Shown here one piece after another: positions 28,065 to 61,856 of a stretch of 64,000 nt of DNA. A model generated the notes under the pieces. It saw nothing but the letters and a program-made list of their open reading frames with translations, was not told the origin of the DNA and searched no databases. Origin of the DNA: a virus; IMG/VR virus record IMGVR_UViG_3300044451_000434, positions 32,001-96,000 of that record; one strand, 5' to 3'. Numbering within the stretch: position 1 is the first letter of the stretch; every line of letters starts with the position of its first letter. Made by a program: the position numbers and the translations under genes.

Positions 28065-29123
28065 TCAGTTCAAAGCCTCCGACATTCGCTTTCTAACCGC
28101 AGCAAGCGAAAACATTTCTTCGGCCCTTTTTTTTGCATTTTTTGCCTTTTGGGATGCAATGTCATAGTATTTTTCAACAGCTTCAGCGACTGCCCTCCCC
28201 ACCGACTCCGATGTAATAACTGGCCAATATTTTGAAGAAAATTGCGGGTATCCATCCATAGAAGCCTGCTCCAAACCTGATGGTTCTATTACTAGACCGC
28301 AAGAATCGTCAAAAAAATCAGAAATTCCACCCGACCGTGTGCTCAACACGGGAACACCAGCCGCCATGGCCTGAGCAACGGGTAGACAAAATCCCTCACC
28401 CCTTGAAGCGCATAGAAAGGCGTGGCAAGACGAATACAGCCCTGCCATGCTTTTCTCCGTCAACTCACCCTCAACAATCATAAAACGGTTCCTAAGCGAT
28501 TCAGGCACGATCCTGACCACCTCCGCACGTGCGGCATGGGGTCTGTCTGTCTTTAAGACAAGACAAACCGGATGCCCGGCAGACATAGCGATAGAACATC
28601 CAAGAATTAGTGAAGACCAATTTTTTCTAGCTTTCCAAGCACCCACTGACAATATGACAAAATCGCCTCCATCATAACCCTTGGGATAGGAACGAAAATA
28701 TAGATCTCCGACCATGTGATTTATCACAGAAGATGGTTTTTCTACCCCCGCTTTTTCAAATACTGACTTACAAAACTTGCTTGGATACCAAATGTTGGAA
28801 CATTTTGAGTTTATAGTTTTTATCCAATCTGCAGGAGGATTTTCGCATTCAAATGTGCATATTCCCACCGTCATTTCCGAGCCCTGAGAGAGACCATTCC
28901 ATCTTGGCGGTATAGAGTGCCATATGCTCACTTGGGCGACTCCTGAAAAGTCATGCTGCAATGCTTGGGTGTCTTCATGCGACATCCATGGCTGATTTAT
29001 CATTGGATGCATACTTTTGACCCTAACCTTATGCCCACAAGACCTGAGCACATGTAAATAGCCAAGGGCGGCATGCCCGAACCCCGTGTTGTTTATGAAA
29101 CAGGCATATTCTACTTTAAGCAT
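28065..29123 (-). CDS. Glycosyltransferase, GT-B fold, family GT4 (352 aa)
   Basis: N-terminal TGFGHAA, ARKN, and C-terminal ASRGEGFCLPVAQAMAAGVPVLST (E-x7-E motif with Q at the second position). Confidence 0.9.
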   Translation of the reverse strand: MLKVEYACFINNTGFGHAALGYLHVLRSCGHKVRVKSMHPMINQPWMSHEDTQALQHDFSGVAQVSIWHSIPPRWNGLSQGSEMTVGICTFECENPPADWIKTINSKCSNIWYPSKFCKSVFEKAGVEKPSSVINHMVGDLYFRSYPKGYDGGDFVILSVGAWKARKNWSSLILGCSIAMSAGHPVCLVLKTDRPHAARAEVVRIVPESLRNRFMIVEGELTEKSMAGLYSSCHAFLCASRGEGFCLPVAQAMAAGVPVLSTRSGGISDFFDDSCGLVIEPSGLEQASMDGYPQFSSKYWPVITSESVGRAVAEAVEKYYDIASQKAKNAKKRAEEMFSLAAVRKRMSEALN

Positions 29124-29124
29124 T

Positions 29125-32100
29125 TCATGTGCTGATCATCGTCAGTCCAGGGAGGGTTTCTCGAGCGTCATGGATAATCCCAAGAGTTCCATTAGAAAGA
29201 TTTTCCACAACCTGTCCAAAAGAATCCACCCTAACAATCCTACCAGCACTTGAACCTATAGCGCTTTCAGCCACAAGAAAAAGACCATCAGCAGTCACGG
29301 AAACATCAGAGGCGTACAGTCCATCAGGACATGTGTACTGAAATGCCCTAGTTCCATCAGACTCGTTCACCACGACTACCCTACCCCTGTAACTCGCGTG
29401 CTTGGCAAGTGCCTGACCGACGAATGCATCAACCTCCCAAAAGTTTATCGGAGGTTCCGTTCCTGACTCAAAATCCACACCAGAAAGCAAAAGTCTGCCA
29501 TCGTCAAATATAACAGCACTGCCAAGAGTAAAATCAGAAACAGCAAAACTTGTGGCTCCACCAAACGCAAAAACTCCAGCCCAATCTGACTTTCTCAATT
29601 TGACAACGGTAGGTACAGTAGGCTGCTGACCTTCTTCTTCATCATCTACCTCCTCTTCAATAACCGTAATTCTCAATTGTATATCAGAAGGAGAAAAATT
29701 AGTCTCAACAAGAGTGCCATTGTCCTCCTGCTCAATACGAACCCGCAAATTTAGAAGATAGGTCGTTCCGACCATCGCTTGGGCGTTCGCACCTGAGGTT
29801 ATGGTCAATATGGAACTAAAAGCACGATCTTGTTTTACTTTGACAGTCCCAGAAAAAGCCGGAGTGCCCTGGAGCACAGGGGGGATGTGTCCGGGTTTTT
29901 CTGGATCATTGATGAAAGAAACTACGTATGGATTTCCATTAGGGTCTATTGATTGATCATCTGGGAATCGATATAAAACTCTAAATTCGAGACCATCACC
30001 TTCGGCAGCTATGTTGAGAAAATATTCGTCTGAGTCTGGACGCAAACCAGCACGTATCCTGTCAAAATTAATTGTACTGTTGCAAACTAACCAATAATCT
30101 CCAGCATCCTCAGCAGATACAGGATGGTACACTGAATTTAGGTAGGTGAAATCACCCACAAACAACCTAAGACCATTGAGTGTGTAATTTGCGGCAAGCA
30201 GACTAGAATTAGTATACGATGTTCTACCAACTACAGAAGGTTCCAATCTGCAGAAAATTTGCAAACCTGCGTCTCTTCCCTGGGTGGCAAGGAGCACTTT
30301 GTCGGTGGACAATTTTATCTGAAACACATTAGGTGGTCTACCATCAGTTATCACCTCATCAAGAGCATTTCCTTTAACCGAGGTTGATCCAATCACAAGT
30401 GTGAACTTACTCTTGTCTGCATTTGCTGCAAAAATTACATCGTCAGAAAAAACCATTTGTAAAATTCTAGTGAAGGGATTCAGAACAGCACACAATGGAA
30501 CAAACTGGCCTCCAGTTGGAAGAGGCTCTGCATTGCCGACGCCCCTAACGAATTTTGCGTCTCTAGATATCTGAAGAACTCTGTTATTGTATGTATCAGA
30601 AACTAAATAACTCTTATCTGAAACTCGTGATATTGAACTGACTTGGTCGAATCCAATAGTAGGCAATCCATTTGCAGACAAGACGCTAGATGGTCTTGAA
30701 GACTGAGAAGGAGATATGGGAAGATCAGCACCCATATATCCAAATTCTGAGAAAAGACTATCATCAAGTTGCTGTATAGAGTCGTTTGAAGCATAAAAAA
30801 TCTTTTTAATTTCTAGCGGAGGCTTAATTCGCACGCTAGCAAGACCAGAATTGGAATCAACAATTTCTGCATTACTCAATGTGCATAAAGACCATTGATC
30901 TCTGCGAGAAAAAACAAATCCAGATTCATTCCCAGTAGTTTTGATCAATATAGAAAAATCTTTGAATAATGGGGCTTCAGATCGATCACTATTTGCCCTC
31001 AAAGACACCTCAATATCCACTATCGTTGCAGAAACATTCAATAATTCTCCCGTTGGCGGAAGAGGCCCTTCGAAAAGCGCAGCATCCACATCTGCAAATG
31101 AATTCCCGTATCTGTATCGCAATTCAATAGCAGAAGTTGGGGGTATATTACTAGAATTCCATTCTATTGCCTGAATAATAAATGGGGAGTTTGCCACATA
31201 TCTGTAGCGTGCAAAGCCTGCTGCTTTAAAAATAACCTCAGTAGCACTCGCAGTGGATGTTCGCACATCGTCTATGTTGAAAGAAAAATCAACCGATCCA
31301 TCTTCTACCTCAAATACCATGGAAGTTATTGATTCGCGCTCAAATGGCGTGAGATTGTATTCAATCAACTTGAAGTTATCCATAGCGGGGTCTGAATTGG
31401 TGGTGATCTCATTTGCAGTGAGAACTATTGCTTTTGCAGTAGTGGTAGCAGTGGTATCTGTCGTGCCTTGGTTGATCAGGTAAAAAGAAACTACAGGGTG
31501 AACATCTGCTATGCACCTGATGTACATGAACAACTTGTTAAAATTACTCCAGTTGCTATTGCTTGATATTATTTTACGGAATATGACTTTGTTTTTCACC
31601 CCAGATCGCAATTTAACTGACTTAACTCCATCGGTTTGCACAGAAACATCACCACTGATACCAACAGTGCTTCCGATATTATCAACCGCAAAAGAAAAAC
31701 CAGGAACTCCAGAATCAGCGCCATTTTCAAAACTATCAGCAAACAAAACAGTCTCTTCATTTATTGTTGATGCAAGCGTGATCCCCGTATTTTCGCCAGA
31801 TAGGACAAATATGTTTTGGTGGGCGTAGTGAGACTTCAATTCATCTTCAGTGTCAAATCTGATGATGCTTATGGTACCTGCGGTCTGCTTTTTGCCTGCT
31901 ATACATCCGCTATTAGGTGAATAAACTGCGGTTGTGGCTCCGAAATCCACAATACTGTCAGTGGATGTGCCAGGAACATAAGTTATCGTGTTGACATGGT
32001 AATCAGCATGATTGGGATGAGATTTTCTGAAAGCAATATTCTGATGGAGTTGATTGACAGCAGTGACCTCACCAAGCAACACTCTGTCTGAAGTTTGTAG

Positions 32101-32793
32101 AGACCTAGCCAGAGATTCAAGCCCAGCATGACTGAGTGTTCCTGCATTCTTTAATTCAGAATGTTTCATCCTTGGCATGCGCTCATATGCTATCTGACCA
32201 GACGCTATCTGCTCAGCATCTAAGTCACCCACCCTAGCCCCTGGAAGAAAATTCTTAACCTCTCTGAGGAGATCTATTCTTGAAGGTGAGCCGCGATGCT
32301 TATGCTTGGCTATTTCAGAAAGCACGAGAGATCGAAATGATATTTGCTGCTTGACGGAATTATCAATCTGATTGATGACGCCTGCCCCAGATGTGACCTT
32401 AGCAAGCCTGATGGCATTTGGCAGACTGTATATGGGAGACCAAAATATTGAACCATTGCTTGGACCAAAGCCTGGAACAACTCGGAGGAAAACATAAACA
32501 GTGTCATCTGAAGGCAATCCAGAAAGTTGGGCAGGGCTGTCTATGTATAAGGCTCTACCTTGGGCAAAAGCCACACCAGGAGACACATACACATTCGTAC
32601 CACCCTGAGAACTGATTGCTGTGGTAACAGACATTCCTGAAACCACACCGTTCCCAAAAAGGGAGTACATGCCAAAGATTTGTCTATCAATCGTTAGGAA
32701 TCTTTCCTGCTCCAAACGCACGCTTACAGCCGCGTCTAGCCTGTCGCGGAAGTCAAAGTATCCCAAACCGTAATAGGGCGTCCGACCTGCCAC
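29125..32793 (-). CDS. Tail fibre/baseplate-associated protein (1222 aa; anchor domain, HxH, CBM-like domain, NHL-like propeller)
   Basis: N-terminal GNGVVSGMSV...VYVSPGVAFAQG anchor domain, KHKH, LDAEQIASGQIAYERMP, CBM-like NWSNFNKLFMYIR...FNIDDVR, NHL-like YLVSDTYNNRVLQIS. Confidence 0.65.
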   Translation of the reverse strand: MAGRTPYYGLGYFDFRDRLDAAVSVRLEQERFLTIDRQIFGMYSLFGNGVVSGMSVTTAISSQGGTNVYVSPGVAFAQGRALYIDSPAQLSGLPSDDTVYVFLRVVPGFGPSNGSIFWSPIYSLPNAIRLAKVTSGAGVINQIDNSVKQQISFRSLVLSEIAKHKHRGSPSRIDLLREVKNFLPGARVGDLDAEQIASGQIAYERMPRMKHSELKNAGTLSHAGLESLARSLQTSDRVLLGEVTAVNQLHQNIAFRKSHPNHADYHVNTITYVPGTSTDSIVDFGATTAVYSPNSGCIAGKKQTAGTISIIRFDTEDELKSHYAHQNIFVLSGENTGITLASTINEETVLFADSFENGADSGVPGFSFAVDNIGSTVGISGDVSVQTDGVKSVKLRSGVKNKVIFRKIISSNSNWSNFNKLFMYIRCIADVHPVVSFYLINQGTTDTTATTTAKAIVLTANEITTNSDPAMDNFKLIEYNLTPFERESITSMVFEVEDGSVDFSFNIDDVRTSTASATEVIFKAAGFARYRYVANSPFIIQAIEWNSSNIPPTSAIELRYRYGNSFADVDAALFEGPLPPTGELLNVSATIVDIEVSLRANSDRSEAPLFKDFSILIKTTGNESGFVFSRRDQWSLCTLSNAEIVDSNSGLASVRIKPPLEIKKIFYASNDSIQQLDDSLFSEFGYMGADLPISPSQSSRPSSVLSANGLPTIGFDQVSSISRVSDKSYLVSDTYNNRVLQISRDAKFVRGVGNAEPLPTGGQFVPLCAVLNPFTRILQMVFSDDVIFAANADKSKFTLVIGSTSVKGNALDEVITDGRPPNVFQIKLSTDKVLLATQGRDAGLQIFCRLEPSVVGRTSYTNSSLLAANYTLNGLRLFVGDFTYLNSVYHPVSAEDAGDYWLVCNSTINFDRIRAGLRPDSDEYFLNIAAEGDGLEFRVLYRFPDDQSIDPNGNPYVVSFINDPEKPGHIPPVLQGTPAFSGTVKVKQDRAFSSILTITSGANAQAMVGTTYLLNLRVRIEQEDNGTLVETNFSPSDIQLRITVIEEEVDDEEEGQQPTVPTVVKLRKSDWAGVFAFGGATSFAVSDFTLGSAVIFDDGRLLLSGVDFESGTEPPINFWEVDAFVGQALAKHASYRGRVVVVNESDGTRAFQYTCPDGLYASDVSVTADGLFLVAESAIGSSAGRIVRVDSFGQVVENLSNGTLGIIHDARETLPGLTMIST

Positions 32794-32795
32794 TT

Positions 32796-33002
32796 TTACC
32801 TCGACACGGTGCCGTTTCTAACTCCAATCCTTGCCTCGCCTGCCGAATTTATGGAAGACAGCGGAGTCAGGCTAGTTCCTAGCGTTCCTTCTAACTCTCT
32901 CTGAGCAGCATCATTTCCTTGAGTCTTCCCCAATTCTTCTAGAATTACAGCACGTATAGTCTGCATCATATACCTGCCTGCGTCATTAATTTTTTCATTC
33001 AT
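32796..33002 (-). CDS. Small hypothetical tail-tip protein (68 aa)
   Basis: Strong SD GAGGAG upstream; fills the gap between hub and fibre genes. Confidence 0.65.
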   Translation of the reverse strand: MNEKINDAGRYMMQTIRAVILEELGKTQGNDAAQRELEGTLGTSLTPLSSINSAGEARIGVRNGTVSR

Positions 33003-33053
33003 GATTGTCTCCTCGATTGTTTCACTTTTTTTAGACTATAACCTACAAAGTTT

Positions 33054-41634: not shown

Positions 41635-41659
41635 GCACCCACCGCAGCCTTCATGTCAA

Positions 41660-44761: not shown

Positions 44762-44783
44762 GACAGAGTCCGCCTCTCTGTCT
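44761..44783 (-). promoter_or_regulatory. Hairpin occluding the tape measure ribosome-binding site and start codon
   Basis: mRNA reads AGACAGAG-AGGCGGA-CTCTGTCT, a perfect 8-bp stem; its last T is the first base of the TTG start. Confidence 0.55.
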
Positions 44784-44804
44784 ATTTTCTAACACAATGC
44801 ATAC

Positions 44805-45185: not shown

Positions 45186-45186
45186 G

Positions 45187-45824: not shown

Positions 45825-45844
45825 GAACCTATTTTATCGGATGA

Positions 45845-46849
45845 TTATAGAGGGAATGGGTGTGGCTGATCTCCCATACTCCACGGTTCACCACCATAAT
45901 CAGATATCGCAAGATACCTGCCGGCGTCGGTACCTAAAGAAACAAATGCCATGGGTGTCTCGATGATTCCGTTGGTGAGTTCTGTGCTGTCCAACTGGAA
46001 GACGCAGCCGAAGAACTTCACAAGAGTTGTCGGGGTTGGTCCGATTTTGGCCTGCAACATAAGATTGACATGCGGGATATTTTCGCCCGGATCATCTTCC
46101 CGATTTTTTGCCTGATCGGCCAAGGTTGATGGGCGACCAAAAAATGTTATACTACCAGTTATCTTACGCTTCTTTGGCAGGATGTCGTATGGAGCCAACT
46201 GCCCCGCGATGACATACACCTCTTCCGACTGGTTGTCAATTGTTACATTGAATTGCTTAATTAATTTGAACTCATTTTGATTGACACCACCATTGTTCAT
46301 GTTCTCCATGCCGATGGTTACATCGTTGTAAGAGATAACACGGAGAGGAGATTCCGCATCTGCAGTTGTTAAGTTGGGAAGAGCATCCGCTGCTGTTGCT
46401 GCCCGACGACCCCTGCCTCGGAATTCAGCAGTGCAATCCAAGGTACCATTGGCAGATATATCCAGTGTTATTTTGTCAACGACCATGTCTTCGTATACAA
46501 ATGTGAAACCAGAGTGGTAATGAACCACCACATCAACAGTTTTCGCGAATTTGCCATCTGCCGTTCTCCTGCCTGCAGCAGTCCACAACTCCGCGAAGGT
46601 GTCGAGGTTTCCGCCATCCTGTGCCTTATCTAGGGTGAACTTTACTTGGCCTGATGCCTTAAAATTGCCCATCTTGTATCTGGTCATGTCAATGCTGCCG
46701 TCGATATCCTCAACTGGTTCAATTGACTGTTCACCCTTGATGTTGCAAGTCGTTACACGCAGGATACTCCCGTTGATGGCCACCACGCCAGGGAATCCAG
46801 CACGCACGGGAAAATTTTGGTTACTAATAGGTTCCTCAAATGATGGCAT
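45845..46849 (-). CDS. Major tail tube protein (334 aa, two tandem tube-like domains)
   Basis: Tube motifs IKQFNVTIDN and KRKITGSITF, with N-terminal counterpart NFKASGQVKF. SD GAGGT. Precedes chaperones and tape measure. Confidence 0.8.
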   Translation of the reverse strand: MPSFEEPISNQNFPVRAGFPGVVAINGSILRVTTCNIKGEQSIEPVEDIDGSIDMTRYKMGNFKASGQVKFTLDKAQDGGNLDTFAELWTAAGRRTADGKFAKTVDVVVHYHSGFTFVYEDMVVDKITLDISANGTLDCTAEFRGRGRRAATAADALPNLTTADAESPLRVISYNDVTIGMENMNNGGVNQNEFKLIKQFNVTIDNQSEEVYVIAGQLAPYDILPKKRKITGSITFFGRPSTLADQAKNREDDPGENIPHVNLMLQAKIGPTPTTLVKFFGCVFQLDSTELTNGIIETPMAFVSLGTDAGRYLAISDYGGEPWSMGDQPHPFPL

Positions 46850-46890
46850 TATTTTACCTCATCTCGTCGATGATCGTGAGAACAGACTCA

Positions 46891-47259: not shown

Positions 47260-47275
47260 TTGCTCCTCCGATGGT

Positions 47276-48361
47276 TCATAATGATGTTACACTTTCTACA
47301 TCAAGTTTCCCTGCTTCCCTTCTTGAGATTAATGGCAGCAATTTGATAAAAATATCAAGATGGTTGGGAATAGCCGAAAGATCGCAAGGTCGCGAGGGTT
47401 CTGATAGGGACGATAAGGCCACCAATGTCTCTGAAAGAGCCCCTGGAATCGGTATATGCAGCAACTTGCCTGGCGCAGACATGAACGGGACAGATGGAAG
47501 GAGATGGCTGCATCCAAGGGCCCGGAAGACTGGGCAGTCGGTCACCACCGAATCAACCCCAAATTTGGCGGCTTCAACCACAGAAACCGCAGAAGACGGG
47601 CATAGGACAGGGAAAATCGCCGCCCAAGCGCCAGCAAGCGTCTGCGCGTACAGGAGGTCGTCCACCCCGTACTCCACAGAAGAGGCCGCCCAAGCCTGCC
47701 TAGAGCCTGCTGGTAGTCTCCCACGACCAAGGTCAAAATCTCCAGGATCAGCCCCATTTGTTCCGATCACAAGCTCCCATCCACCGCTAGACAGACCAGA
47801 CTTCTCCCATTCCGACAGAAGGTATGAAAAATTATTAGACTCAAAGTTTCTCATGGGTGCAAAAAAATACTTCCCCCTCTTGATCCCGTGCACATCCTGC
47901 GAAAGCATGGCGGTTGACGGTATAGAAACTTGAACATTTTTTGCACCAGATCTGGTAGCTTGGTTTGCTGCCATCCTGCTGCAGGCTATGACCGCATCAG
48001 CTAGAGGACATGAATCGTAGGGTCTGTCAACATGTCTTTCGCAGTCGTTCAATATGTGCAACCATCCAAAATCGCCAATCCCGACCACCCTACAGGCTGC
48101 GACATGGGCGGCATCTGCGTCATCCCCAAAAGATATCACCAGATCTGGTTTCGCTGATTCGCAAAATGCGCCAAAGTTGACCGCTGCCGCAACCCCTCTT
48201 GGCAACGGCAAGCACCTTGGGATGTCTAAATCAGCAGATAGATCAAAAAACACCCCAACATGTTCGGGAAAAGATTTTTGAACATGTCGCCATATGACAT
48301 CGCCAATTCTTGAGTTGGCGGTCAACAGATGAGGGCTGCAACCTGTCACGGCAACAATCAT
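47276..48361 (-). CDS. Divergent GT4-like glycosyltransferase-fold protein (probable start MIVAVTG at 48361)
   Basis: GT-B layout: KPDLVISFGD, ADAVIACSRMA, PMRNFESNN, AAIFPVLCPSSAVSVVEAAKFGVDSVVTD (first Glu of E-x7-E lost). TGATG overlap with the upstream stop. Confidence 0.65.
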   Translation of the reverse strand: MIVAVTGCSPHLLTANSRIGDVIWRHVQKSFPEHVGVFFDLSADLDIPRCLPLPRGVAAAVNFGAFCESAKPDLVISFGDDADAAHVAACRVVGIGDFGWLHILNDCERHVDRPYDSCPLADAVIACSRMAANQATRSGAKNVQVSIPSTAMLSQDVHGIKRGKYFFAPMRNFESNNFSYLLSEWEKSGLSSGGWELVIGTNGADPGDFDLGRGRLPAGSRQAWAASSVEYGVDDLLYAQTLAGAWAAIFPVLCPSSAVSVVEAAKFGVDSVVTDCPVFRALGCSHLLPSVPFMSAPGKLLHIPIPGALSETLVALSSLSEPSRPCDLSAIPNHLDIFIKLLPLISRREAGKLDVESVTSL

Positions 48362-49269: not shown

Positions 49270-49529
49270 AGTGGGTATTTCATTATTTTTTCAACAACCC
49301 TATCAAGCATATCTTCCACAATCGCATTTATCTTGTCCATCTTGGCAGCATCTTCGGGCGAAGCGCTTCTTACTGCAGCGTCTTGAGTTGCCTCTTCTCT
49401 AGAGGAAAATATTCTTGTGCTAGCATATATGCGAGATGGAGCACTAGAAGACTCGGCAGACCCATCTTTTATGGCATTGATCTGCGCTAGAGCCGAGCTG
49501 ACAATATCTCTCATTTCTGCCATGATCAC
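49266..49529 (-). CDS. Hypothetical protein (87 aa)
   Basis: 4-nt overlaps with both neighbours. Confidence 0.55.
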   Translation of the reverse strand: MIMAEMRDIVSSALAQINAIKDGSAESSSAPSRIYASTRIFSSREEATQDAAVRSASPEDAAKMDKINAIVEDMLDRVVEKIMKYPL

Positions 49530-50251
49530 ATCTCAGGAATGTCTCTAGTCGAATCCTGATCAGTATTGGGTAGTGCATATCTACTCAGAAGCGTGGGGTT
49601 GGCAAATCTGCTTGAGATTCTATTCTGACCATGAAGAACAGTTCTCCCATTCAATATATTGCTCAACATGATGCGTGCCTGATTTCTCAACCCTTTGCCA
49701 TATTCGCTGTTTCCAGTCGCGCTCATGTAAGAGAAGTACCTGTCAAATAGACTGGCGACACAGAGACGTGCTGATGTCCCCGGGACAGGATCGGGGAATT
49801 TCACGCGCAGCAATCGTGATTCTGCGGCTGAAAAATCCACCAAGAAAGGTTCATTGACGATGAGGTTTGTTCCGTTCGCAACATCAGCGACTGTTCTTCT
49901 CTCATTAATAAATCCATTTGTCAACACAATCACATCACCAGGAACGAATACATTTGCATTTGGACTCATGATGACAACATCTGTGTTGTAGGGATCAATG
50001 TCTACCACAAGTTCAAATTCCACATCACTTATCTCTCTCAGTGGAGTGCTGTACATGGAGCTCAAAATAGAGTTTATGTACTGGTCGGCGAGAACAATGT
50101 GCTGATCAAGAATCTCGTCGGTTATCACATTCCCCTTGAGCATGTTACCAAAGTTGACGAGATCGCCTTTCTGAGTGAGCGTTGGATCTGTTGCAGTCGT
50201 AAAAGACTGGGCAAAAACACGCTTGCAAAGGTCTCGCGTTGCATATCCCAT
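49526..50251 (-). CDS. Head-tail connector/adaptor (Mu gp36/DUF1320-like) with an inserted domain (241 aa)
   Basis: MGYAT start, ILDQHIVLADQYINSILSSMYSTPL, PVPGTSARLCVASLF, QARIMLSNILNG follow the gp36-like pattern. Confidence 0.65.
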   Translation of the reverse strand: MGYATRDLCKRVFAQSFTTATDPTLTQKGDLVNFGNMLKGNVITDEILDQHIVLADQYINSILSSMYSTPLREISDVEFELVVDIDPYNTDVVIMSPNANVFVPGDVIVLTNGFINERRTVADVANGTNLIVNEPFLVDFSAAESRLLRVKFPDPVPGTSARLCVASLFDRYFSYMSATGNSEYGKGLRNQARIMLSNILNGRTVLHGQNRISSRFANPTLLSRYALPNTDQDSTRDIPEM

Positions 50252-51423
50252 CAGACCTGATCCCTAGTTATAATTCCCTTGACAAGTCTATTCTTCACAA
50301 TCTGAGCAGATGTTAAAAGCCCAGAGCAAACCGCGTTTCGCGGGTCTGCAGCCTTGCGAACATCGCCAATTTTGAACGGCAAATTTATTGAAGACATGAT
50401 TCTTTCCAATTTCTTATCGAAACCGTTTGGCATAGAAGTGCCTCCGGCGATCACCACATCAAGAGGCTTATCAAACTGACTCTTAACTTCTGTAAACTTC
50501 TTAGCAAACAAACCCACGACATGACGGAGCATAGCATCGTAATATGCGTCAAGGGCAAAAGCTGTGTCATTGTCTTCGTCTATATTTTTAAAATCAAGAA
50601 CTCGCTCTTTGAAGTCAATCACCTGAGACATAGGTACTGCAGTCTGCTCTGAAACCTGTTTATCTACCCAATCTCCGCTCCTGCTGACAGACATACCAAG
50701 AACCTGCATGCCCTTGTATGCCAAAACGCAGTTTGCCCTACCAGCACCAAATGACATTCCTATTCCACTGAACGGCACTTCTGTACCGTCATCAAGAACA
50801 ACAGACGGCCTCTCGCTGAGGATGACAGCAAGACCTTCTTCTATGACCTTTACATTCCAGCCAAGGCGGGTAAACATGGCCTTGAGGCGAGCTGCATGGA
50901 AAGTACTGTCCTGCCCACCGTCAGCGCACGGACTCGACACGCATGTGCAAACAACGGAATTTTCGTCAGGGGCCTTACCAAGAGAAGATTCTATAATGCC
51001 AGAAAGAACCAAACTCTTCTTTGGTTCATCTCTATTGAGCACTCCATCTTGAAGAGGACGACGAATCTCCACCGAACCAGGAAATAACTTGGCAACCTGC
51101 ATGGAGTCATCTCCAACGACAAAATACTGCATTCCGTCGTTTACATATCTCCAGCCATTTCTAGTCAAGATCTCTTCCAATTCTGATGAATATGGGATTT
51201 CTACAAATGCGTTCCTGACCGCAGAGACGCTTATCTTGTCATCAATGAGCTCTGCTGTCTGAAAAAACATAGTTCCCACATCAACTCCCACTGCTCGGGC
51301 GTGTGACTCTTGCGCCTGTACCGATTCAGCCTTGTTGGCAGTTTGCACAGGGGTATTCGGATTCACTGACGACCGAAGCTTTAGGGAGGCAAAATTCTGC
51401 ATGGCTTTTTCCTTGGCACTCAT
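50251..51423 (-). CDS. Actin-like ATPase (volactin-like family, 390 aa)
   Basis: Phosphate-1 VGVDVGT, connect-1 IEEGLAV, phosphate-2 GMSFGAGRAN, GDWVD, adenosine VVIAGGTS, connect-2 DPRNAVCSG. Confidence 0.9.
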   Translation of the reverse strand: MSAKEKAMQNFASLKLRSSVNPNTPVQTANKAESVQAQESHARAVGVDVGTMFFQTAELIDDKISVSAVRNAFVEIPYSSELEEILTRNGWRYVNDGMQYFVVGDDSMQVAKLFPGSVEIRRPLQDGVLNRDEPKKSLVLSGIIESSLGKAPDENSVVCTCVSSPCADGGQDSTFHAARLKAMFTRLGWNVKVIEEGLAVILSERPSVVLDDGTEVPFSGIGMSFGAGRANCVLAYKGMQVLGMSVSRSGDWVDKQVSEQTAVPMSQVIDFKERVLDFKNIDEDNDTAFALDAYYDAMLRHVVGLFAKKFTEVKSQFDKPLDVVIAGGTSMPNGFDKKLERIMSSINLPFKIGDVRKAADPRNAVCSGLLTSAQIVKNRLVKGIITRDQV

Positions 51424-51950
51424 CAGAGAAGACCCTCCAATTCATCTAATTTTTTCTTCATATCGGACGCGTCCTTAGATTTGCCTTTTTGAGGTTCCAT
51501 ATTGGTGGAAAGATTAGACGCCATTCGTGAAACAACTTTTTCATGTATAGCTATAAGGTTTTCGGCTTGCGGCTCAGATATTGATTCTACAACATCAATC
51601 TTTTCAACCCGAGATGAAACATGAACAACTTGAGGGGCAGGCATGGAAGATAACATATTTTTTAGCTCTGCTAATGATTCTGCTATGGCAGATATGGCCT
51701 TGCCGTCATTTTCTTCTCTGACTATTTTTCTCAATACGTCCATGTCTATGGTATTCTGGCGCCCACGGCTAGAATCTTTTGCCACCACTCTCAGATACCC
51801 GGCGACCACGGCTTTCTTGACTGAAGGACTTGCCTCGACAATTCTCCTGTCAGCAACAATGTCAAGATCTATAGACTGACTTGGAGACAAAATGACCTTT
51901 AGGTCTCCAAGCGACAAATGCTGCCTAGTTGTATTTACTACCAAAAACAT
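51423..51950 (-). CDS. Hypothetical protein, putative actin adaptor (probable start MFLVVN at 51950, 175 aa)
   Basis: TGATG overlaps at both ends. Small N-terminal domain, short coiled coil, C-terminal amphipathic helix MKKKLDELEGLL. Confidence 0.6.
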   Translation of the reverse strand: MFLVVNTTRQHLSLGDLKVILSPSQSIDLDIVADRRIVEASPSVKKAVVAGYLRVVAKDSSRGRQNTIDMDVLRKIVREENDGKAISAIAESLAELKNMLSSMPAPQVVHVSSRVEKIDVVESISEPQAENLIAIHEKVVSRMASNLSTNMEPQKGKSKDASDMKKKLDELEGLL

Positions 51951-52165
51951 CAGCCCTGCAATCTGGTTCGCGGTAAAGGTTTGAAATTTTTTGATGGATC
52001 TACAATCATCGTCGAACTCTTTTTGCACGATGGACAAACCATGTGAATCGTGCCCTGTGAGAAGTTGATCTCCACGTTGCCACGAGCCGCCGTACTAGAG
52101 AAACACGCAGGACACACCACCCTGAACTCCTCAGACTCATGGACCACCTCCTCTGGTTTAGGCAA
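51950..52165 (-). CDS. Zinc-ribbon protein (71 aa, TTG start)
   Basis: CPAC...CPSC pairs; SD AGGAG upstream. Confidence 0.7.
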   Translation of the reverse strand: MPKPEEVVHESEEFRVVCPACFSSTAARGNVEINFSQGTIHMVCPSCKKSSTMIVDPSKNFKPLPRTRLQG

Positions 52166-54416: not shown

Positions 54417-54451
54417 AAATAGTATTTCTGACTTGTTGCGACCTATCCTTG

Positions 54452-54497
54452 TGCGGAGGTGTGGGGCAGAAAACGAACCCCGCCCCACACCGCCGCA
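54452..54497 (-). terminator. Strong GC-rich hairpin just after phoH (terminator or mRNA-stabilising stem)
   Basis: Plus strand TGCGG-A-GGTGTGGGGC (14-nt loop) GCCCCACACC-G-CCGCA: 15 bp with one mismatch. No U-tract. Confidence 0.55.
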
Positions 54498-54503
54498 GTG
54501 ATG

Positions 54504-55193
54504 TCAGTTTTTTTCCTTGTATTTGAGGTCTATCTTAGAAACAAGACCATGTCGCTGGCAAGATTCTGGGGGGAATTGGAAACGACTAATCCCATCCACG
54601 CTCTTGAGCCTTCTAAGAGCATCTGTCAAGCCATTCCTAGACGACCTGCAATCTAGATCGCACTGGAATTCGTCACCTGCGACAACTGCTTTAGATGATT
54701 TACCAAGCCTAGTGAGGAAAAGGTGCATCTGCTCAGGAGTGCTGTTTTGCGCCTCGTCCATGATCATGAAAGTGTTTTCAAAAGTGACGCCACGCATGAA
54801 GGCAAGAGGGAGTATTTGAATTTCATCAGATGCCATCATTCTGCTAGCCGTGCTCTTCCCAAGAATTTTCTCCATAATCATCCTGATTGGAGCAACAAAA
54901 GGATCGAACTTTTGCTCAAGAGATCCAGGAAGGTATCCTAGTCTTTCGCCAGCGCTCACGTAAGGACGTGTAAGAATAATTTTGCTTATTCGTTTTTCAC
55001 TCAACATCCGCAAAGCCATGCCAGTGGCAATTGTTGTTTTTCCTGTACCCGCCATTCCATATAACATGGTCACTGCGCTGTCCTCAATTATTTTCACAGC
55101 TTGCCTCTGATGTTCATCAAGTGGCTTGAATGCTATATGGGACCCAGGACGACTGCTCTCAATCAACTGCTTGCGCTTGGACTTGTTGCTCAT
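54504..55193 (-). CDS. phoH: PhoH-family ATPase (229 aa)
   Basis: Walker A GMAGTGKT, LGYLPG, LAFMRG, DEAQN, LTRLG, GD..QCD, QRHGLV. Confidence 0.95.
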   Translation of the reverse strand: MSNKSKRKQLIESSRPGSHIAFKPLDEHQRQAVKIIEDSAVTMLYGMAGTGKTTIATGMALRMLSEKRISKIILTRPYVSAGERLGYLPGSLEQKFDPFVAPIRMIMEKILGKSTASRMMASDEIQILPLAFMRGVTFENTFMIMDEAQNSTPEQMHLFLTRLGKSSKAVVAGDEFQCDLDCRSSRNGLTDALRRLKSVDGISRFQFPPESCQRHGLVSKIDLKYKEKN

Positions 55194-55615
55194 GTCGCTT
55201 TTCCTCCCAATGTTAAGATGACAAAATCAGACGAACGAGAATCACGGCGGCACACAACACCATCCGTGAGCATCGCAACATATAAAGAGTCCACATCCTC
55301 CATACGCGATACGATTTCGTCCCAAACGGGCGAAGGGAGGCGGATACGCCTCCCTTCAAGCAACTGTAGTCTTATTTTTATTGGATTGAAGTTTGTCAAA
55401 GACTCAACCTGCACCAAAAAGTTGTCAAATTCATTAGCCAATTCCAACTGCCAAAAACCAGATTCGTCTCTTGATCGTCTCAACTGGTTTATCTGCTCGT
55501 CTCCCATACACTCTCGTAGATAGGCCAACTGATCTGCATTAAGCAGACGAGTCAATCTGCAAAATTCTGGATATGATTCAAAAATAGGTTCGTCTTTAGC
55601 TTTTTTTCTTTTCAT
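55190..55615 (-). CDS. Hypothetical protein (probable start MKRKK at 55615, 141 aa)
   Basis: ATGA overlaps on both sides. Confidence 0.55.
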   Translation of the reverse strand: MKRKKAKDEPIFESYPEFCRLTRLLNADQLAYLRECMGDEQINQLRRSRDESGFWQLELANEFDNFLVQVESLTNFNPIKIRLQLLEGRRIRLPSPVWDEIVSRMEDVDSLYVAMLTDGVVCRRDSRSSDFVILTLGGKAT

Positions 55616-55908
55616 GCTTGGATGTTTATGGGAGCGTTGAGCATGATATGGCACATGTTCAACACATGGGTGGTATCCGCGTCTGCTTCACCAGCAGCGA
55701 ACTTAACCAACAACCCGTTTTCAAGAGCAATACCCCTCCCTGAAAGCAAAGTGTTTCTGAAATTTTTGGGCATCCTATTCACTGCAGGATCATCACCATT
55801 GATGATATAATTCTTCATCTCTTCAGTAGCAAGGGCGTAGAAGAAACAATCACCATCCCCTGCAACCTTGTCAAGCAACTCTCGCAAAACTTTCTTGTTT
55901 ACGATCAT
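55612..55908 (-). CDS. Hypothetical protein (probable start MIVNKK at 55908, 98 aa)
   Basis: ATGA overlap with the upstream stop; contains VAGDGDCFFYAL. Confidence 0.55.
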   Translation of the reverse strand: MIVNKKVLRELLDKVAGDGDCFFYALATEEMKNYIINGDDPAVNRMPKNFRNTLLSGRGIALENGLLVKFAAGEADADTTHVLNMCHIMLNAPINIQA

Positions 55909-56903
55909 ACACCACCACCTGTAAATATGTATCTGAACCATCTGCTCCTGCCGCCAGGTAGAGCGTATTCAGGAGTGACAATATTTCTAGTCTTGGGATA
56001 TGGACCAAGTTTCTTGCCATCCAAGAAGCCTTTAACGCTCTCTTCATAATTCTTTTTCAAAGTGTCTAGGCTGCTCGAAAGATTTGAAGCACGCTCAGCA
56101 CTACCAAAAACAAGTTGCGGCTCCTGAAAAGTTAAAGACAGCATAATTTCTCTCATTGCATCTGCTGCAGCGCCGTAAAGAACAGCCGGGACAATCTCGC
56201 ATGGCACTGAAGCAAGACTGTAATTGCTTCTAGGCGGGTAAAAATTAAACCTGCCAAGAGCATTCGCCAAAAATCTGTACAGTTGATCATCGGAAAACCA
56301 TCTGAAATTGTAGTCGGCATTCACAATGTCATATGATGTAAATGGCGTGTTAAAAGTAACTGTACCACGAAAATAATTCGTAGAAAAGCCATCGTCTACG
56401 ATGTTGTTGTTCCTATAGATTCTGACGCCTGCTGACTGATTCCACCTCGGAAAAGAAAACGCAAAAGTGGCGTTGTCTTTTGACGGACGACCCTGCTCAA
56501 AATACACAGGTATGTTCATGGTTGGTCTTATGTGATATTCAAGAGCAACTATAAGATCCCTAATCTGCCCAAAATAAACACTTTCTGGATCGGGCCTCTC
56601 ATTTATGACAACCTCTTGAGTAATCGTGTTTATTCCAACACCATCATCATATGACCAGGTTAAATCCCATCGACCCACTTCTGCATCAGATGCAACCGAC
56701 CATATGTATGCATAATAACCATCAGATATGGTGATTGCAACATCTCCATCGACATCAACCTCTCCAGACGGACTGGTCAGAGTGACAGACACATCGGTGG
56801 CTGCGACAGGCTGAGAATTGAGAGATGTCAATCTCAGAAACAAACTGTTTGAAGTGCCTTGGGTAAATGTTCCTTGAGACTCTGTCGATTGACTTAGTGC
56901 CAT
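55905..56903 (-). CDS. Neck/head-completion protein with N-terminal Ig-like domain (332 aa)
   Basis: Ig-like VSVTLTSPSG...GYYAYIW...GRWDLTW. C-terminal adaptor-like FSDDQLYRFLANALGRFNFYPP...AVLYGAA. Confidence 0.55.
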   Translation of the reverse strand: MALSQSTESQGTFTQGTSNSLFLRLTSLNSQPVAATDVSVTLTSPSGEVDVDGDVAITISDGYYAYIWSVASDAEVGRWDLTWSYDDGVGINTITQEVVINERPDPESVYFGQIRDLIVALEYHIRPTMNIPVYFEQGRPSKDNATFAFSFPRWNQSAGVRIYRNNNIVDDGFSTNYFRGTVTFNTPFTSYDIVNADYNFRWFSDDQLYRFLANALGRFNFYPPRSNYSLASVPCEIVPAVLYGAAADAMREIMLSLTFQEPQLVFGSAERASNLSSSLDTLKKNYEESVKGFLDGKKLGPYPKTRNIVTPEYALPGGRSRWFRYIFTGGGV

Positions 56904-57676
56904 CAGAATTTCCTCAAGTCTTGCGAGGTTCTGCCTGTTGATGTTACTTCAATACGGCCAGGAATACCTGCCCGAGAAACCTGAACACCCGGCATCGGAG
57001 AGCCAAACCCAACAACTGCTCCAGAGGGAGCTTCAAAACACAAGGCATACATTCCGGATTTTACTGCCACCGCCATAGCATCATTCAATTCATTAAACCT
57101 CAAAGATCCGTATGGAGGATTGTAGGAAACCCGCTTGAGTTCTTGAGTAGTTCTGAGAGCCGCATCTACCATACGCAATGACACCCTGCTAACCTGTGCA
57201 GTTGATGCTCCTGCAGAAACCTTTGCGTATACAACTTTTTCATTGAAAGGATAGAACACAGATGCAGATCCGACCCTAGCTCCAGACATGAAAAAGTTGT
57301 CAAGCCTACTGCTCTCTTCAGATAGAAAGGCTCGCAAAGCAACCTGCGAAGGATCATCACCGCGAAGAGCCACGCCAAGAATTGGATCCCACAACAACTC
57401 TTCGTGAGACAAAAGCAGATCATCAACTGCTGGCGAAACTCCCATCCTTTCATAGATGCAAACATTTACCCTGTCATTTTTAATTCCGTCAGCCTTTATT
57501 GAAGCACCGTACATCGGGAAACGAAGCAATTCTAAAGAGATAACTGCAGAAGCATGCGTTATGGTAGATGAAAAAATACCTGAAGATGGATTGAGCTTTA
57601 GACCATCTTCTGATGTGCAGATACAGTAAAAAACAGATTGTCTTGGTGCAATAAATCTCACCGGAAATGATGGCAT
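56903..57676 (-). CDS. Hypothetical protein (257 aa)
   Basis: Tightly packed in the operon; TGATG overlap with the next gene. Confidence 0.55.
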   Translation of the reverse strand: MPSFPVRFIAPRQSVFYCICTSEDGLKLNPSSGIFSSTITHASAVISLELLRFPMYGASIKADGIKNDRVNVCIYERMGVSPAVDDLLLSHEELLWDPILGVALRGDDPSQVALRAFLSEESSRLDNFFMSGARVGSASVFYPFNEKVVYAKVSAGASTAQVSRVSLRMVDAALRTTQELKRVSYNPPYGSLRFNELNDAMAVAVKSGMYALCFEAPSGAVVGFGSPMPGVQVSRAGIPGRIEVTSTGRTSQDLRKF

Positions 57677-57679
57677 GAC

Positions 57680-58441
57680 TTATATTTCCATCATTTTATT
57701 GACTATGCCTCTTGAATCCATATCGGAACTAGCAGCAATAATATTTGCAGCAACACCAGCAACAAAAGCATTGGCAAAACTAGAGCCTATAGAATCCATA
57801 AATCTGTCTCCAACGGTCATGGTATCATATGTCCAATTAGGCATGGTTATCTTGATCCCGTCAGCAGATGGGGATTTAACTTCGCCTACTGCGACTGAAA
57901 TAACTCCAGAAGCCGAAGACGGGAAGGCATAAGAACGCGTATCAGAAACCGCAGAAAATATCAATATTTCTTTTGCAAGCAATTTTTTAATCACTTCTGA
58001 AGCGAGATGCTCTTCTTCAGAAGATGTTAGGCTGCAAACCACAATATCGCACCTTGAAGCCATGCACCACAAAAGTCCTCCGACAAGAGCAGATATATCT
58101 CCCGACCTGTCAGACTTTGCACACTTGGCGTGAAAGAAAGTGGCTTCATGACAAAGACCAGGAATACCTGAGGCATGAGATGAAGATAAAATGCCCGATA
58201 CAGAAGTGCCGTGACCATCTCGGTCATATGGCTCTTCGCCATTAACCATACTAACCTGCCTACTCTGATTGTTTAACTTGATATCTCTATGTGTGGGAGC
58301 ACCCGTGTCTACTATTCCGATTTTGAGACCTGAACAGTCAGTTCTTTCCACCCTAAATCCTCCATGTGCTGGCAGCACAACCTGTCTGACTCTAGGTGAT
58401 ATCCTAAGTCTTCCATCTGGAGGGGAATCACCCAACACCAT
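57680..58441 (-). CDS. Subtilisin-like serine protease, S8 (probable start MVLGD at 58441)
   Basis: Triad motifs IGIVDTG, DGHGTSVSGIL, GSSFANAFVAGVAA. SD GAGGAG upstream of 58441. Confidence 0.85.
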   Translation of the reverse strand: MVLGDSPPDGRLRISPRVRQVVLPAHGGFRVERTDCSGLKIGIVDTGAPTHRDIKLNNQSRQVSMVNGEEPYDRDGHGTSVSGILSSSHASGIPGLCHEATFFHAKCAKSDRSGDISALVGGLLWCMASRCDIVVCSLTSSEEEHLASEVIKKLLAKEILIFSAVSDTRSYAFPSSASGVISVAVGEVKSPSADGIKITMPNWTYDTMTVGDRFMDSIGSSFANAFVAGVAANIIAASSDMDSRGIVNKMMEI

Positions 58442-59153
58442 CGGACACAATCTCCTCTTCAACCATTTCTACAAAACTAAAAACAGGGCTACAAGATCTT
58501 GAAGACCTGAGCAGAAGGGCTCTTCCACCACCCGAAGCACAGCCCCATGCACACACAGGATCATCTGTAACCAAAGCAGAGACGGTTCTGCTCTCTTCAA
58601 TTCTCTTCACTAAACTCTTGCGAACAGGCACATGCCAAAGTCTGCCTGTCTCAAAAAATTTTGACTTTACAGCCATGCGAAGGGAGTCATTGGAGATTGA
58701 AACACCCTGCCTGTCATGCATTTTTGTAGAAAACTTGGTGTGGAAACTTGGCAGGACAACATCATCAATATGAAATGCCTTAGACAAAGAATACAGAATA
58801 GGTTGCCCCTCAAGATATGCAGAAAGTATATGAGAAAACCTTGCCTCTGTTGCCACTATAGATGCACCATCAAGAACCAAGCCATAGGCGCCAAGACTTA
58901 ACGCATGACGACAGTCAACCACGGAGTCAGAAACGCACACAATCTCATCAAACTGATCCCTAGAAATAGTGTGCAGATGAGCAAAATATGGCTTACCGGG
59001 AAGAATTTTTTGAAGTCCGTCCTCCCATCCAGCTGAGGATGAAATTGTGAATTCACACTGTCCACCATAGATGCGCTTCATGATTTGAAGCAATGAAGAA
59101 GTTACAAGTATCCCCCATTCAGATGGAGATGGAATCAGGCATATTTTTTTCAT
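58428..59153 (-). CDS. Divergent GT9 (heptosyltransferase)-like protein (241 aa)
   Basis: MKKICLI...GILVTSSLLQIMKRIYG, FDEIVCV and ALVTDDPVCAWGCASGG echo GT9 motifs (GDV...P..ALK..YP; lvtNDsG.mHiAaa). Confidence 0.45.
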   Translation of the reverse strand: MKKICLIPSPSEWGILVTSSLLQIMKRIYGGQCEFTISSSAGWEDGLQKILPGKPYFAHLHTISRDQFDEIVCVSDSVVDCRHALSLGAYGLVLDGASIVATEARFSHILSAYLEGQPILYSLSKAFHIDDVVLPSFHTKFSTKMHDRQGVSISNDSLRMAVKSKFFETGRLWHVPVRKSLVKRIEESRTVSALVTDDPVCAWGCASGGGRALLLRSSRSCSPVFSFVEMVEEEIVSDGVG

Positions 59154-59154
59154 G

Positions 59155-59742
59155 TCATAGCCTTATTTCGGCTGCGTTTCTGATCCCGCTAGGTAAAATA
59201 TCATCATCTGTTCCTGTGTCAACATCATCTTTCCTTCGTATGGAGCCTCGAGATTTCCTACTTGCTTTTTGAGCCTCTTTCTTGAGTTTTAATTGCTCAC
59301 TGTGCGCCTGACGCATAACTGACAATTCTTGCCCAGACAACCTAACGAGATGACCCGAAGATATCAGAGACAGAATCTGAGCAGGAATATCACCATATTC
59401 TTTTTTGATGAATGATGCAGATTTTCCGTCTATTTTGCCATCAAACTTTAAAGGAGGCTGCAACTTGCTCAATATCAAACATCCATCTTTGGCAGGAGCT
59501 ATAAAGTCTTTTTCTTGCGACACCTGAGTATCAAGAGAGACAACTCTAGAAATAGCAGGATTAGACTGCGGGACAGATACGGTTCCAAGAACTAACTCTT
59601 TGAGAGTAATCAGGCCGCCATCAACTACGGCAGGCACGTTCATCAACTCTGGATGAACCATTACCCTATCGATTGGGAGAGAATAGACTTTTTCTCCCAT
59701 AAACACAACCCTGCCAAAATCTCTGTCGTAAAATGCTTTCAT
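59155..59742 (-). CDS. Hypothetical protein (probable start MKAFYD at 59742, 195 aa)
   Basis: ATGA overlap with the GT stop; basic then acidic C-terminal tail. Confidence 0.55.
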   Translation of the reverse strand: MKAFYDRDFGRVVFMGEKVYSLPIDRVMVHPELMNVPAVVDGGLITLKELVLGTVSVPQSNPAISRVVSLDTQVSQEKDFIAPAKDGCLILSKLQPPLKFDGKIDGKSASFIKKEYGDIPAQILSLISSGHLVRLSGQELSVMRQAHSEQLKLKKEAQKASRKSRGSIRRKDDVDTGTDDDILPSGIRNAAEIRL

Positions 59743-61085
59743 AATTTTGTTACCAAGCCTTTGAATTGCGAAACAACGGCGTCCGCAGAGCACATGTCAG
59801 CCAATTTTGACGCTGCTCTTGAAGCCATCAAGTTTCTCTTTTTAGGGGATGTAGACCAACATATTCTCATGGACGCACCAAGTCTTTGAATAAATTCTAC
59901 ACTCACCGTATCCGCCATGACGGTGCCATCCCATAAAATTGTACCAGTTGTACCATTTTTAATAGTTGTCCTGTCAACATCGACCAAAAATGCTGAAGAA
60001 TCATCAAGGAAATCAAGTTGACCACCAAACCTTGGAGCAACTGAAGGTATCCCGCACATGGCTGCTTCTGCATACGGAAGACAAAATCCTTCTCCCCTTG
60101 CAGCTAGAACGCATGCATCTACAGACCTGTACAACTTGGCAAGATCTGCTTCAGTAATGTTTTTAGACATTCTGACCACGAGTGGAGGATGCTTTTTGCC
60201 ACAACTTGACACCAAATCAGAAACCACATCTGCGAATTTTTTTTGAGCTTCTTCTCCGCGCTTGTCTCTATGCGCCACGATGAGACATACATCATCTGAT
60301 GGATCAAATTCCTTAAGAAATGACTCAATTACATTGGTGCCAACCTTTCTAGAGCTAATTCCAAATATAGTTAAAAACTTGAAACTTGGCAATGGAGATG
60401 AGAATTGATATTCTGCTCCTTTTGCACAAAAAATGTCATTATTAATGTGTGGACTCAAAACTCCCGCGTCAATATCATACTTCCCAAAAGTGTCACAGCA
60501 GAATCTACTTACACACCAAACCATTTCATATTTCTTTGCAGAAGCTGCAACAGCAACAGGCAGAGTTTCTGACTCGATAGTAGTGTAGAGCACCCTCATG
60601 CCAGATGGACCTGGAGAGCCAAATGTGGGTACCACACTATTTATATCAAGCATGCCTTGGCATCTTGGCCTTATGGGCAGTCCGCATCTTGCATCTTCGT
60701 ACAAAAGCTGTGGTTTCCCAAGGTCTACTGGGTCAACACTTACTGAAATGTTTTTTGTAGTAAGTGCTTTGACCAAACCTCTATTGACCTTTCCATATCC
60801 TGAATAGTCTAAAAACTGGCCTCTGATTACGACATCATCAAGCATGGCATCACCAGATGGCTTCTTTGCTTTCGCTGACATTTTTGCCAATGCTGCCTGT
60901 ATCCCATCGGCTTGGTCATGATCCAACACAACCACATAACCCTTTGCAACAGCCGAACGAAGAGATGGCGCTGATCTAACACGATCTGATGATATCTCAA
61001 ATTTATCACCACTATCACCAGCAGGGATGCGATCATCCCATTCGGGAACATATACAGGTATGCCAAGGACATTTCTTACTATCAT
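59739..61085 (-). CDS. Glycosyltransferase GT4 with extra N-terminal domain (probable start MIVRNV at 61085, 448 aa)
   Basis: SGYGKVNR, YTTIESETLP, SSRK and AARGEGFCLPYAEAAMCGIP (intact E-x7-E). Confidence 0.9.
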   Translation of the reverse strand: MIVRNVLGIPVYVPEWDDRIPAGDSGDKFEISSDRVRSAPSLRSAVAKGYVVVLDHDQADGIQAALAKMSAKAKKPSGDAMLDDVVIRGQFLDYSGYGKVNRGLVKALTTKNISVSVDPVDLGKPQLLYEDARCGLPIRPRCQGMLDINSVVPTFGSPGPSGMRVLYTTIESETLPVAVAASAKKYEMVWCVSRFCCDTFGKYDIDAGVLSPHINNDIFCAKGAEYQFSSPLPSFKFLTIFGISSRKVGTNVIESFLKEFDPSDDVCLIVAHRDKRGEEAQKKFADVVSDLVSSCGKKHPPLVVRMSKNITEADLAKLYRSVDACVLAARGEGFCLPYAEAAMCGIPSVAPRFGGQLDFLDDSSAFLVDVDRTTIKNGTTGTILWDGTVMADTVSVEFIQRLGASMRICWSTSPKKRNLMASRAASKLADMCSADAVVSQFKGLVTKL

Positions 61086-61830: not shown

Positions 61831-61856
61831 CGTGCTTCAAGATTCACCCAAACTTA

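Follow-up and report, generated by a model that had tools for sequence, protein, structure and literature searches.

Four GT-B fold genes at three conserved sites in the late operon of a large uncultivated phage: a candidate system for virion protein glycosylation

Glycans on actinobacteriophage virions shield the particles from antibodies, and to our knowledge virion glycosylation has so far been demonstrated in actinobacteriophages only. In the mycobacteriophages Che8, Corndog and Myrna, phage-encoded glycosyltransferases (GTs) modify the C-termini of the capsid and tail-tube proteins, as the work of Freeman et al. 2023 is summarized in PMC12619734, PMC12363180 and PMC11256854. Here we analyse a 64,000-nucleotide stretch of viral DNA—the window, bases 32001-96000 of a linear 164,107-bp IMG/VR virus record—that constitutes the late virion operon. 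It comes from a large uncultivated phage whose capsid resembles that of phage G, and carries four GT-B fold genes at three fixed sites. These are a capsid-proximal GT4 gene (GThead, 59739-61085), a GT9-like gene (58428-59153), a divergent GT4-like gene in the neck region (GTneck, 47276-48361) and a GT4 gene between giant genes of the tail region (GTtip, 28065-29123), all within one co-oriented late block on the minus strand. A sequence-only reading of the window had recognized these four genes and proposed that they glycosylate virion proteins; the gene observation is confirmed, including the strand and the GT-B fold of each, and the proposal is partly supported. We tentatively favour glycosylation of virion proteins as the best single explanation for the four genes.

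By analogy, the locus resembles the mycobacteriophage system in that GTs are encoded by a tailed phage whose capsid protein here carries a short C-terminal Ser/Thr tail. The arrangement differs: four GT-B genes occupy three operon positions rather than one cluster, one of the four is GT9-like, another is coupled to giant appendage genes, and the tube protein has no tag. The precedent invoked by the sequence-only reading, of actinobacteriophage GTs encoded among virion genes, does not extend to the F1-cluster phages related to Che8, in which the GT genes lie near the 3' genome end (PMC11256854). A tblastn search of 50,697 phage records gave no mycobacteriophage match for GThead, GTtip or the GT9-like protein; GThead matched one cyanophage record only, and GTtip matched Streptomyces and Rhodococcus phage GTs at ~25% identity. 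The closest relatives of GTtip in cultured phages, from Streptomyces phages, are encoded outside the virion block. The moraphage belongs to a different, T4/Lak-related lineage (PMC12619734).

Two groups of enzymes offer further comparisons. GThead and GTtip share with GT4 retaining enzymes (PimA, MshA, BshA and chlorovirus B736L) the R-G-E-G-F-C-L-P motif, and both pass the Pfam cut-offs; in contrast to these enzymes, GThead carries an additional domain at its N-terminus, the second Glu of the EX7E motif is replaced by Gln in the GTtip clade, and in GTneck the first Glu is missing and a loop is shorter by four residues. Gram-positive serine-rich-repeat (SRR) adhesins, for their part, are glycosylated by the GT4 pair GtfA/GtfB. 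The present locus recalls that system in placing a GT4 gene beside very large proteins with Ser-only tracts, and GtfA (Gtf1) appears among the weak PDB sequence matches, at marginal E values of 0.15-0.5; unlike SRR repeats, however, the tracts found here are pure poly-Ser linkers of 16-120 residues.

Nearly all large open reading frames (ORFs) of the window lie on the minus strand. In the direction of transcription the capsid gene is followed by a head-tail adaptor-like gene (weak matches only in family searches), the tail tube gene (45845-46849, minus strand; Phage_tube_2, E 5.7e-17), a 1033-aa tape-measure-like gene that received no identity from PHROG or Pfam, and a run of giant genes. The capsid-side GT genes form a four-gene cassette: GThead (448 aa), an uncharacterised gene of ~195-212 aa (59155-59793, minus strand) that always sits between the GT4 and GT9-like genes, the 241-aa GT9-like gene and, as the last member, a gene for a subtilase S8 protease (57680-58462, minus strand; Peptidase_S8 1.7e-13, phrog_3677 9.7e-23). 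GTneck (361 aa) is the third gene past the adaptor-like gene, with a single small gene between it and the tube gene—the tube assignment made from sequence stands, and the "tail terminator" label once given to a 302-aa gene on the other side of GTneck is unsupported. The four GT genes are translationally coupled to their neighbours; each begins 1-2 nt past, or overlapping, the stop of the upstream gene, and the junctions consist of 1-2 nt gaps or 1-4 nt overlaps, in agreement with the close packing noted at the outset.

Scanning IMG/VR with the capsid returned 131 relatives, and 80 of them were retained for comparison. GThead was recovered by iterative searching in 22 of these 80 capsid-family loci, and the order GT4, ~200-aa gene, GT9-like gene and S8 protease gene was present within 6 kb downstream in 20 of the 80 (about a quarter), including contigs of 256-494 kb. 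The order is invariant, and the protease gene always follows the GT9-like gene; related cassette loci have a gap of ~500-700 nt between the GT4 and GT9-like ORFs, with a tblastn homologue of the 59155-59793 gene in five only, and that gene has no match in Pfam, PHROG or the ESM Atlas. A 180-kb JGI contig with proteins ~45-55% identical to those described here has its genes arranged as in the window, beginning with the capsid and continuing to the start of the gene at the GTneck position, where the locus ends. Five family contigs without a cassette near the capsid were also compared: three carry a GT9-like gene 12-50 kb away, two have no GT9-like gene, and GTneck is absent from all five. Conserved position was what the sequence-only reading had wished to see in relatives, and the GT sites are indeed kept there at 30-54% identity.

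By its family matches and motifs, GThead is a clear GT4 enzyme. It matches the Pfam families Glyco_trans_1_4 (2e-7; 31.8 bits against a cut-off of 27) and Glycos_transf_1 (6e-7; 29.6 bits against 26.4), and its EX7E motif is intact (EGFCLPYAE, at residue 351 of the 461-aa ORF). That ORF, as listed, extends to a TTG at 61124; we place the start at an ATG, which fits because relatives are 447 aa long. A ~57-aa N-terminal domain and a linker precede the GT-B part, and the domain is kept in 19 homologues. It is homologous to the N-terminus of a second protein of the window (51423-52037, minus strand; 176-204 aa), with an hhalign probability of 84.8% and an E value of 6.6e-6, and an HMM of the domain finds these two copies only in the genome; it may be a portable docking domain. 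The second copy lies just upstream of a gene (50251-51423, minus strand) for a 390-aa actin-fold protein (Pfam Volactin, E 1.5e-57), which itself stands in the virion operon directly before the adaptor-like gene and is retained in relatives L002, L017 and L018.

GThead had been described as the first minus-strand gene after the capsid gene. The GT4 assignment is borne out, but two features intervene: a strong intrinsic terminator (61802-61831, minus strand; a 13-bp stem with 8 GC pairs, then a T-run) after the capsid gene, and a conserved ORF on the opposite strand (61110-61706, plus strand; 198 aa, no family match), which is 56% identical in L024 and has a 173-aa counterpart in L002. The capsid gene and GThead are not simply co-transcribed; a promoter-like site precedes GThead.

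The second enzyme of the cassette escapes sequence comparison. The 241-aa protein has no match by sequence in Pfam, PHROG or PDB, a profile search against PDB also found nothing, and neither PF01075 (Glyco_transf_9), at E <= 5, nor any other GT family was detected in any of 13 homologues. An AlphaFold model built with these homologues (pLDDT 87.3) placed GT9 enzymes at the top in Foldseek, and VIA-align gave Z scores of 14.5 for WaaC (226 residues, rmsd 3.5), 14.2 for the GT9 entry 3tov, 13.6 for WaaF and 10.3 for TibC, compared with 8.8 or lower for other GT-B families; chains of plant NDH-PSI supercomplex entries match as well, at Z 12.3-12.9. In the ESM Atlas the model matches two clusters, one made up of 219 hypothetical viral proteins (TM 0.76) and one of GT9 proteins (TM 0.74). 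As modelled, then, the protein is a GT9-like GT-B fold from a viral family that has no sequence-detectable link to GT9.

Its best structural matches—WaaC, WaaF and TibC (PDB 2h1h, 1psw and 4rap)—extend over its whole length, although it is ~80-140 residues shorter than these enzymes. In a 21-sequence alignment of the family, reaching down to 16% identity, G150, R159, P176, E187, T196, D198 and L215 are invariant and D69 is nearly so; the invariant polar residues argue for a conserved active site. The C-terminal domain, in which the first reading had seen a likeness to the donor-binding segment of GT9, contains a conserved T-D-D motif. The catalytic Asp of WaaC we take to be Asp13, at the start of helix 1; residue 12 of the 241-aa protein is Glu or Asp in the 13 close homologues, and an acidic residue is not conserved there in the 21-sequence alignment.

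Likeness to WaaC and WaaF, which are lipopolysaccharide (LPS) heptosyltransferases, lends itself to another explanation: the GTs may remodel host envelope glycans (LPS core, capsule or exopolysaccharide) late in infection, with the virion operon giving late timing only. Such remodelling could serve to prevent superinfection, to keep progeny from adsorbing again to cells that are lysing, or to help release. Both GT4 and GT9 are well known as families of LPS-core and exopolysaccharide synthesis, and in some relatives the GT9-like gene lies away from the capsid gene. The contig and its relatives are also rich in GTs—seven GT-type genes here, four in the window and three outside it, and up to eight PF00534 genes in relatives (eight in a 548-kb relative), many of them far from virion genes. 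Set against this, the protein heptosyltransferase TibC is also among the matches of the 241-aa protein, family scans turned up no flippase, polymerase or other envelope-glycan gene, and the GT genes are inserted at fixed sites and coupled between specific structural genes across 30-54% identity. We consider envelope remodelling rather unlikely.

GTtip is likewise a clear GT4 enzyme as far as its sequence allows, paralogous to GThead (25% identity, E 5.6e-18). Its Pfam matches to Glyco_trans_1_4 (E 3.6e-13, 50.4 bits) and Glycos_transf_1 (E 7.1e-12, 45.6 bits) lie above the gathering cut-offs of 27 and 26.4 bits; it matches the PHROG glycosyltransferase family phrog_2170 at 6e-21, and its PDB sequence matches are GT4 enzymes. 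The RGEGFCLPVAQA motif and the R166/K167 pair are invariant among GTtip homologues, and an alignment that also includes GThead shows no variation at Gly14, Glu92, Arg166-Lys167 or the R-G-E-G-F-C-L-P block. The first Glu of EX7E is invariant in the GTtip clade and the second position is Gln throughout (E-x7-Q), with Glu in the outgroup homologue and in GThead.

GTtip lies 1 nt and 2 nt from its two giant neighbours: directly upstream a gene for a 1222-aa protein (29125-32793, minus strand), for which family searches yield a weak NHL match alone, and directly downstream a gene for a 2660-aa RCC1-repeat protein (20080-28062, minus strand; RCC1_2 8.4e-06). In relatives at 54, 46 and 30% identity the site is the same, between a ~1225-aa protein and a giant downstream protein, the latter with an RCC1 match in two of the three (L021 and L023). 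The giant genes that follow the tape-measure-like gene encode proteins of 4092, 2726, 2660, 1777, 1515, 1357, 1333 and 1222 aa, and Pfam and PHROG give no identity for them beyond weak NHL and RCC1 repeats. The placement of GTtip between giant genes stands, and their designation as "tail-tip" genes is therefore a label by position only. Together they belong to an unbroken minus-strand run from 9095 to 76761 of the contig (window 1-44761 and beyond its start), which at ~68 kb takes up 41% of the contig.

GTneck is the outlier. On the evidence of its model, it is a lineage-restricted GT-B protein, probably derived from GT4; its catalytic competence is uncertain. The gene overlaps its upstream neighbour by TGATG. 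Its only Pfam match, to Glyco_trans_4_4, falls below threshold (E 0.0016; 19.3 bits against a cut-off of 29.7) and recurs weakly in three of seven homologues (best 1.2e-4), Pfam gives no match to the C-terminal domain, and neither the 361-aa sequence nor its profile found anything meaningful in PDB. The model (pLDDT 74.8) gives VIA Z scores of 22-24 to GT4 structures and ~21 to UDP-GlcNAc 2-epimerases. The C-terminal domain has no E-x7-[EQD], with the "VEAA" half alone retained. An exhaustive HMMER search found five homologues among 1.8 billion representatives and a word-indexed search found two, all from the phage clade; these few sequences have no invariant column, and an "EAA" segment after C-terminal strand 4 is retained across them. 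In L017 and L018 the gene again stands ahead of the small gene and the tube gene, at 46% identity.

One or more of the GTs, above all GTneck, may no longer be enzymes, and may instead serve as assembly chaperones or as structural or sugar-binding virion components with a GT-B fold. The sub-threshold Pfam match, the missing first Glu of EX7E, the lack of an invariant column and the narrow clade all suit this explanation, as does the place of GTneck, in the group of small genes that separates the adaptor-like gene from the tube gene. The other three GTs, however, keep strongly conserved polar or catalytic residues, and GTneck homologues keep the "EAA" segment; we regard the loss of catalysis as doubtful.

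That the GTs glycosylate phage DNA, as part of hypermodified bases that evade restriction, is highly improbable: GTtip does score above the cut-off for Pfam GT4-conflict (28.9 bits against 26), genes for a C5 DNA methylase, ThyX, a dUTPase and a dCTP-deaminase-like protein are present on the contig, and DNA-hypermodifying phage GTs are known (Pyle et al. 2024, as cited in PMC12619734), but the GT4-conflict match is much weaker than the generic GT4 matches, the GT genes lie in the late structural operon apart from replication and nucleotide genes, and a search of the whole contig found neither a ThyA-type hydroxymethylase (PF00303) nor a TET/JBP dioxygenase, which argues against DNA glycosylation within the limits of a contig that CheckV estimates to be 39% complete. 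Family scans of the contig also turned up no nucleotide-sugar synthesis families. The sequence-only reading had reported that genes of both kinds were lacking nearby, and this holds; what it did not include is a second glycan cluster outside the window.

That cluster, at contig 151782-163377, comprises a PLOD-type GT (539 aa, 1.4e-20), a GT10 protein (280 aa, 2.2e-09), a GT4 protein (386 aa, 1.6e-14), a Methyltransf_24 protein (179 aa), a further 353-aa methyltransferase and two uncharacterised genes of ~375 aa. Collagen-like G-X-Y repeats, possible substrates of the PLOD-type GT, were looked for and none exist.

If the GTs act on virion proteins, candidate acceptors can be named for the head and for the tail region. 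The major capsid protein (61857-62765, minus strand; phrog_2522 2.4e-66) ends in ...DPTTT. Its identity to gp27, the major head protein of Bacillus phage G, is 50%; gp27 ends just before the position of this C-terminal tail and has no such tail, and nearly all of the 80 family capsids have Ser or Thr as the terminal residue. The capsid is 95% identical to that of one relative, though the other proteins compared are 42-54% identical; the capsid family as a whole shows unusual conservation (65-95% identity) and is found on IMG/VR contigs that range from 4 kb up to 548 kb, among them complete genomes of 461 and 548 kb.

In the tail region, the 1222-aa protein upstream of GTtip has a conserved C-terminal -[LM][IV]ST, the four lineages compared reading TMIST, TLVST, NLIST and ILIST. 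Tracts of pure poly-Ser, 16-120 residues long, are confined to three giant proteins of the tail region: the 1333-aa protein (13393-17394, minus strand), a candidate for O-glycosylation with a 16-residue run at residues 150-165, and the 1005-aa and 4092-aa proteins, both encoded outside the window; the longest such region spans ~120 residues and is almost entirely Ser. A count over virion-block proteins showed no enrichment of terminal Ser or Thr overall, and the TTT ends and the conserved -[IV]ST end alone stand out. The GGTTT end of the 1357-aa protein was considered as an acceptor tag and rejected, as it is not conserved in relatives. Among other tails, a 154-aa head-block protein (55190-55654, minus strand) has a conserved Gly-rich end, GGKAT, GGRSS or GGRAS, in all three lineages compared, and an MG2-like 332-aa protein (55905-56903, minus strand) ends in GGGS or SGGT in two relatives and in GGGV in the window.

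Virion protein glycosylation explains the locus best because the GT genes are embedded in the late operon, translationally coupled and deeply conserved in position, with intact motifs and no DNA-modification route. The analysis shows the folds, the family motifs, the coupling and the conserved synteny, and it shows that the contig offers no route to DNA glycosylation. The GTs would be made late as soluble enzymes and would O-glycosylate virion proteins in the cytoplasm while particles are being assembled, drawing on host nucleotide sugars. The capsid-proximal cassette—GThead with its N-terminal adaptor domain, the ~200-aa gene, the GT9-like protein and the S8 protease—would act on head or head-decoration proteins, with the C-terminal Thr tail of the capsid as the obvious acceptor. 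The targets of GTtip would be the giant proteins of the tail appendages, at the -[IV]ST end or the poly-Ser tracts, and GTneck would act on neck or tail proteins, if it has not lost catalysis.

Several points weigh against this explanation. Acceptors, donors and the modification of any protein are what we infer rather than what we observe; the contig is an estimated 39% complete, and missing pathways may therefore lie elsewhere; and GT4 and GT9 are families typical of envelope glycans. The capsid gene is parted from GThead by a terminator and an opposite-strand gene, and the GT9-like gene need not adjoin the capsid gene, since 12-50 kb lie between the two in other family members. The fold of GTneck, which has no first Glu of EX7E, is inseparable from that of UDP-GlcNAc 2-epimerases (within ~2 Z units). 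Across the 80 loci the capsid Ser/Thr tail occurs both with and without a GT cassette within 6 kb, and it is also present in two contigs that have no GT9-like gene, one of which has no PF00534 gene either; tail and GTs therefore do not co-vary, and the comparison does not discriminate. The tube protein, finally, ends in ...QPHPFPL, with no Ser/Thr tail. Of the proposed module-specific glycosylation, the GT-B folds and conserved sites are borne out; that each GT serves its own module is a conjecture.

Other genes of the contig complete the picture of a large phage. A PhoH-like ATPase (54504-55193, minus strand; E 1.7e-66) is encoded among the head and neck genes. Auxiliary genes outside the window encode an Fe/Mn superoxide dismutase, an AdoMet decarboxylase, a thioredoxin, a class I/II ribonucleotide reductase, ThyX and a dUTPase; the C5 DNA methylase (E 2.7e-63), and a Tad3-like Thoeris inhibitor (E 1.5e-13) are likewise encoded there.

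Taken at its fullest, virion glycosylation would make the locus part of a wider programme, although we think this extended version quite unlikely. A widespread lineage of large aquatic phages with G-like capsids would run multi-site virion glycosylation: a capsid-side cassette (GT4, ~200-aa protein, a new compact GT9-like enzyme maybe using ADP-heptose, and a subtilase) would be docked by a portable ~57-aa domain shared with the partner of the phage actin, and a separate GT4 would serve ~68 kb of giant appendage proteins with poly-Ser tracts. The glycans of head and appendages would then differ, and the GT10, PLOD-type and GT4 enzymes and the methyltransferases encoded elsewhere on the contig would help to build them. 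The fixed cassette of GT4, ~200-aa, GT9-like and S8 genes is a set of four genes that lends itself to testing by co-expression with the capsid. The 241-aa protein, judged by its model and by the 219 members of its Atlas cluster, founds a viral family of compact GT9-like proteins that is invisible to sequence methods, and may provide a minimal heptosyltransferase scaffold. If glycosylation of virion proteins is borne out, it would reach beyond capsid and tube to the tail appendages, and a widespread, uncultivated group of large phages, in which contigs of up to 548 kb carry this capsid, would join those known to have glycan coats.

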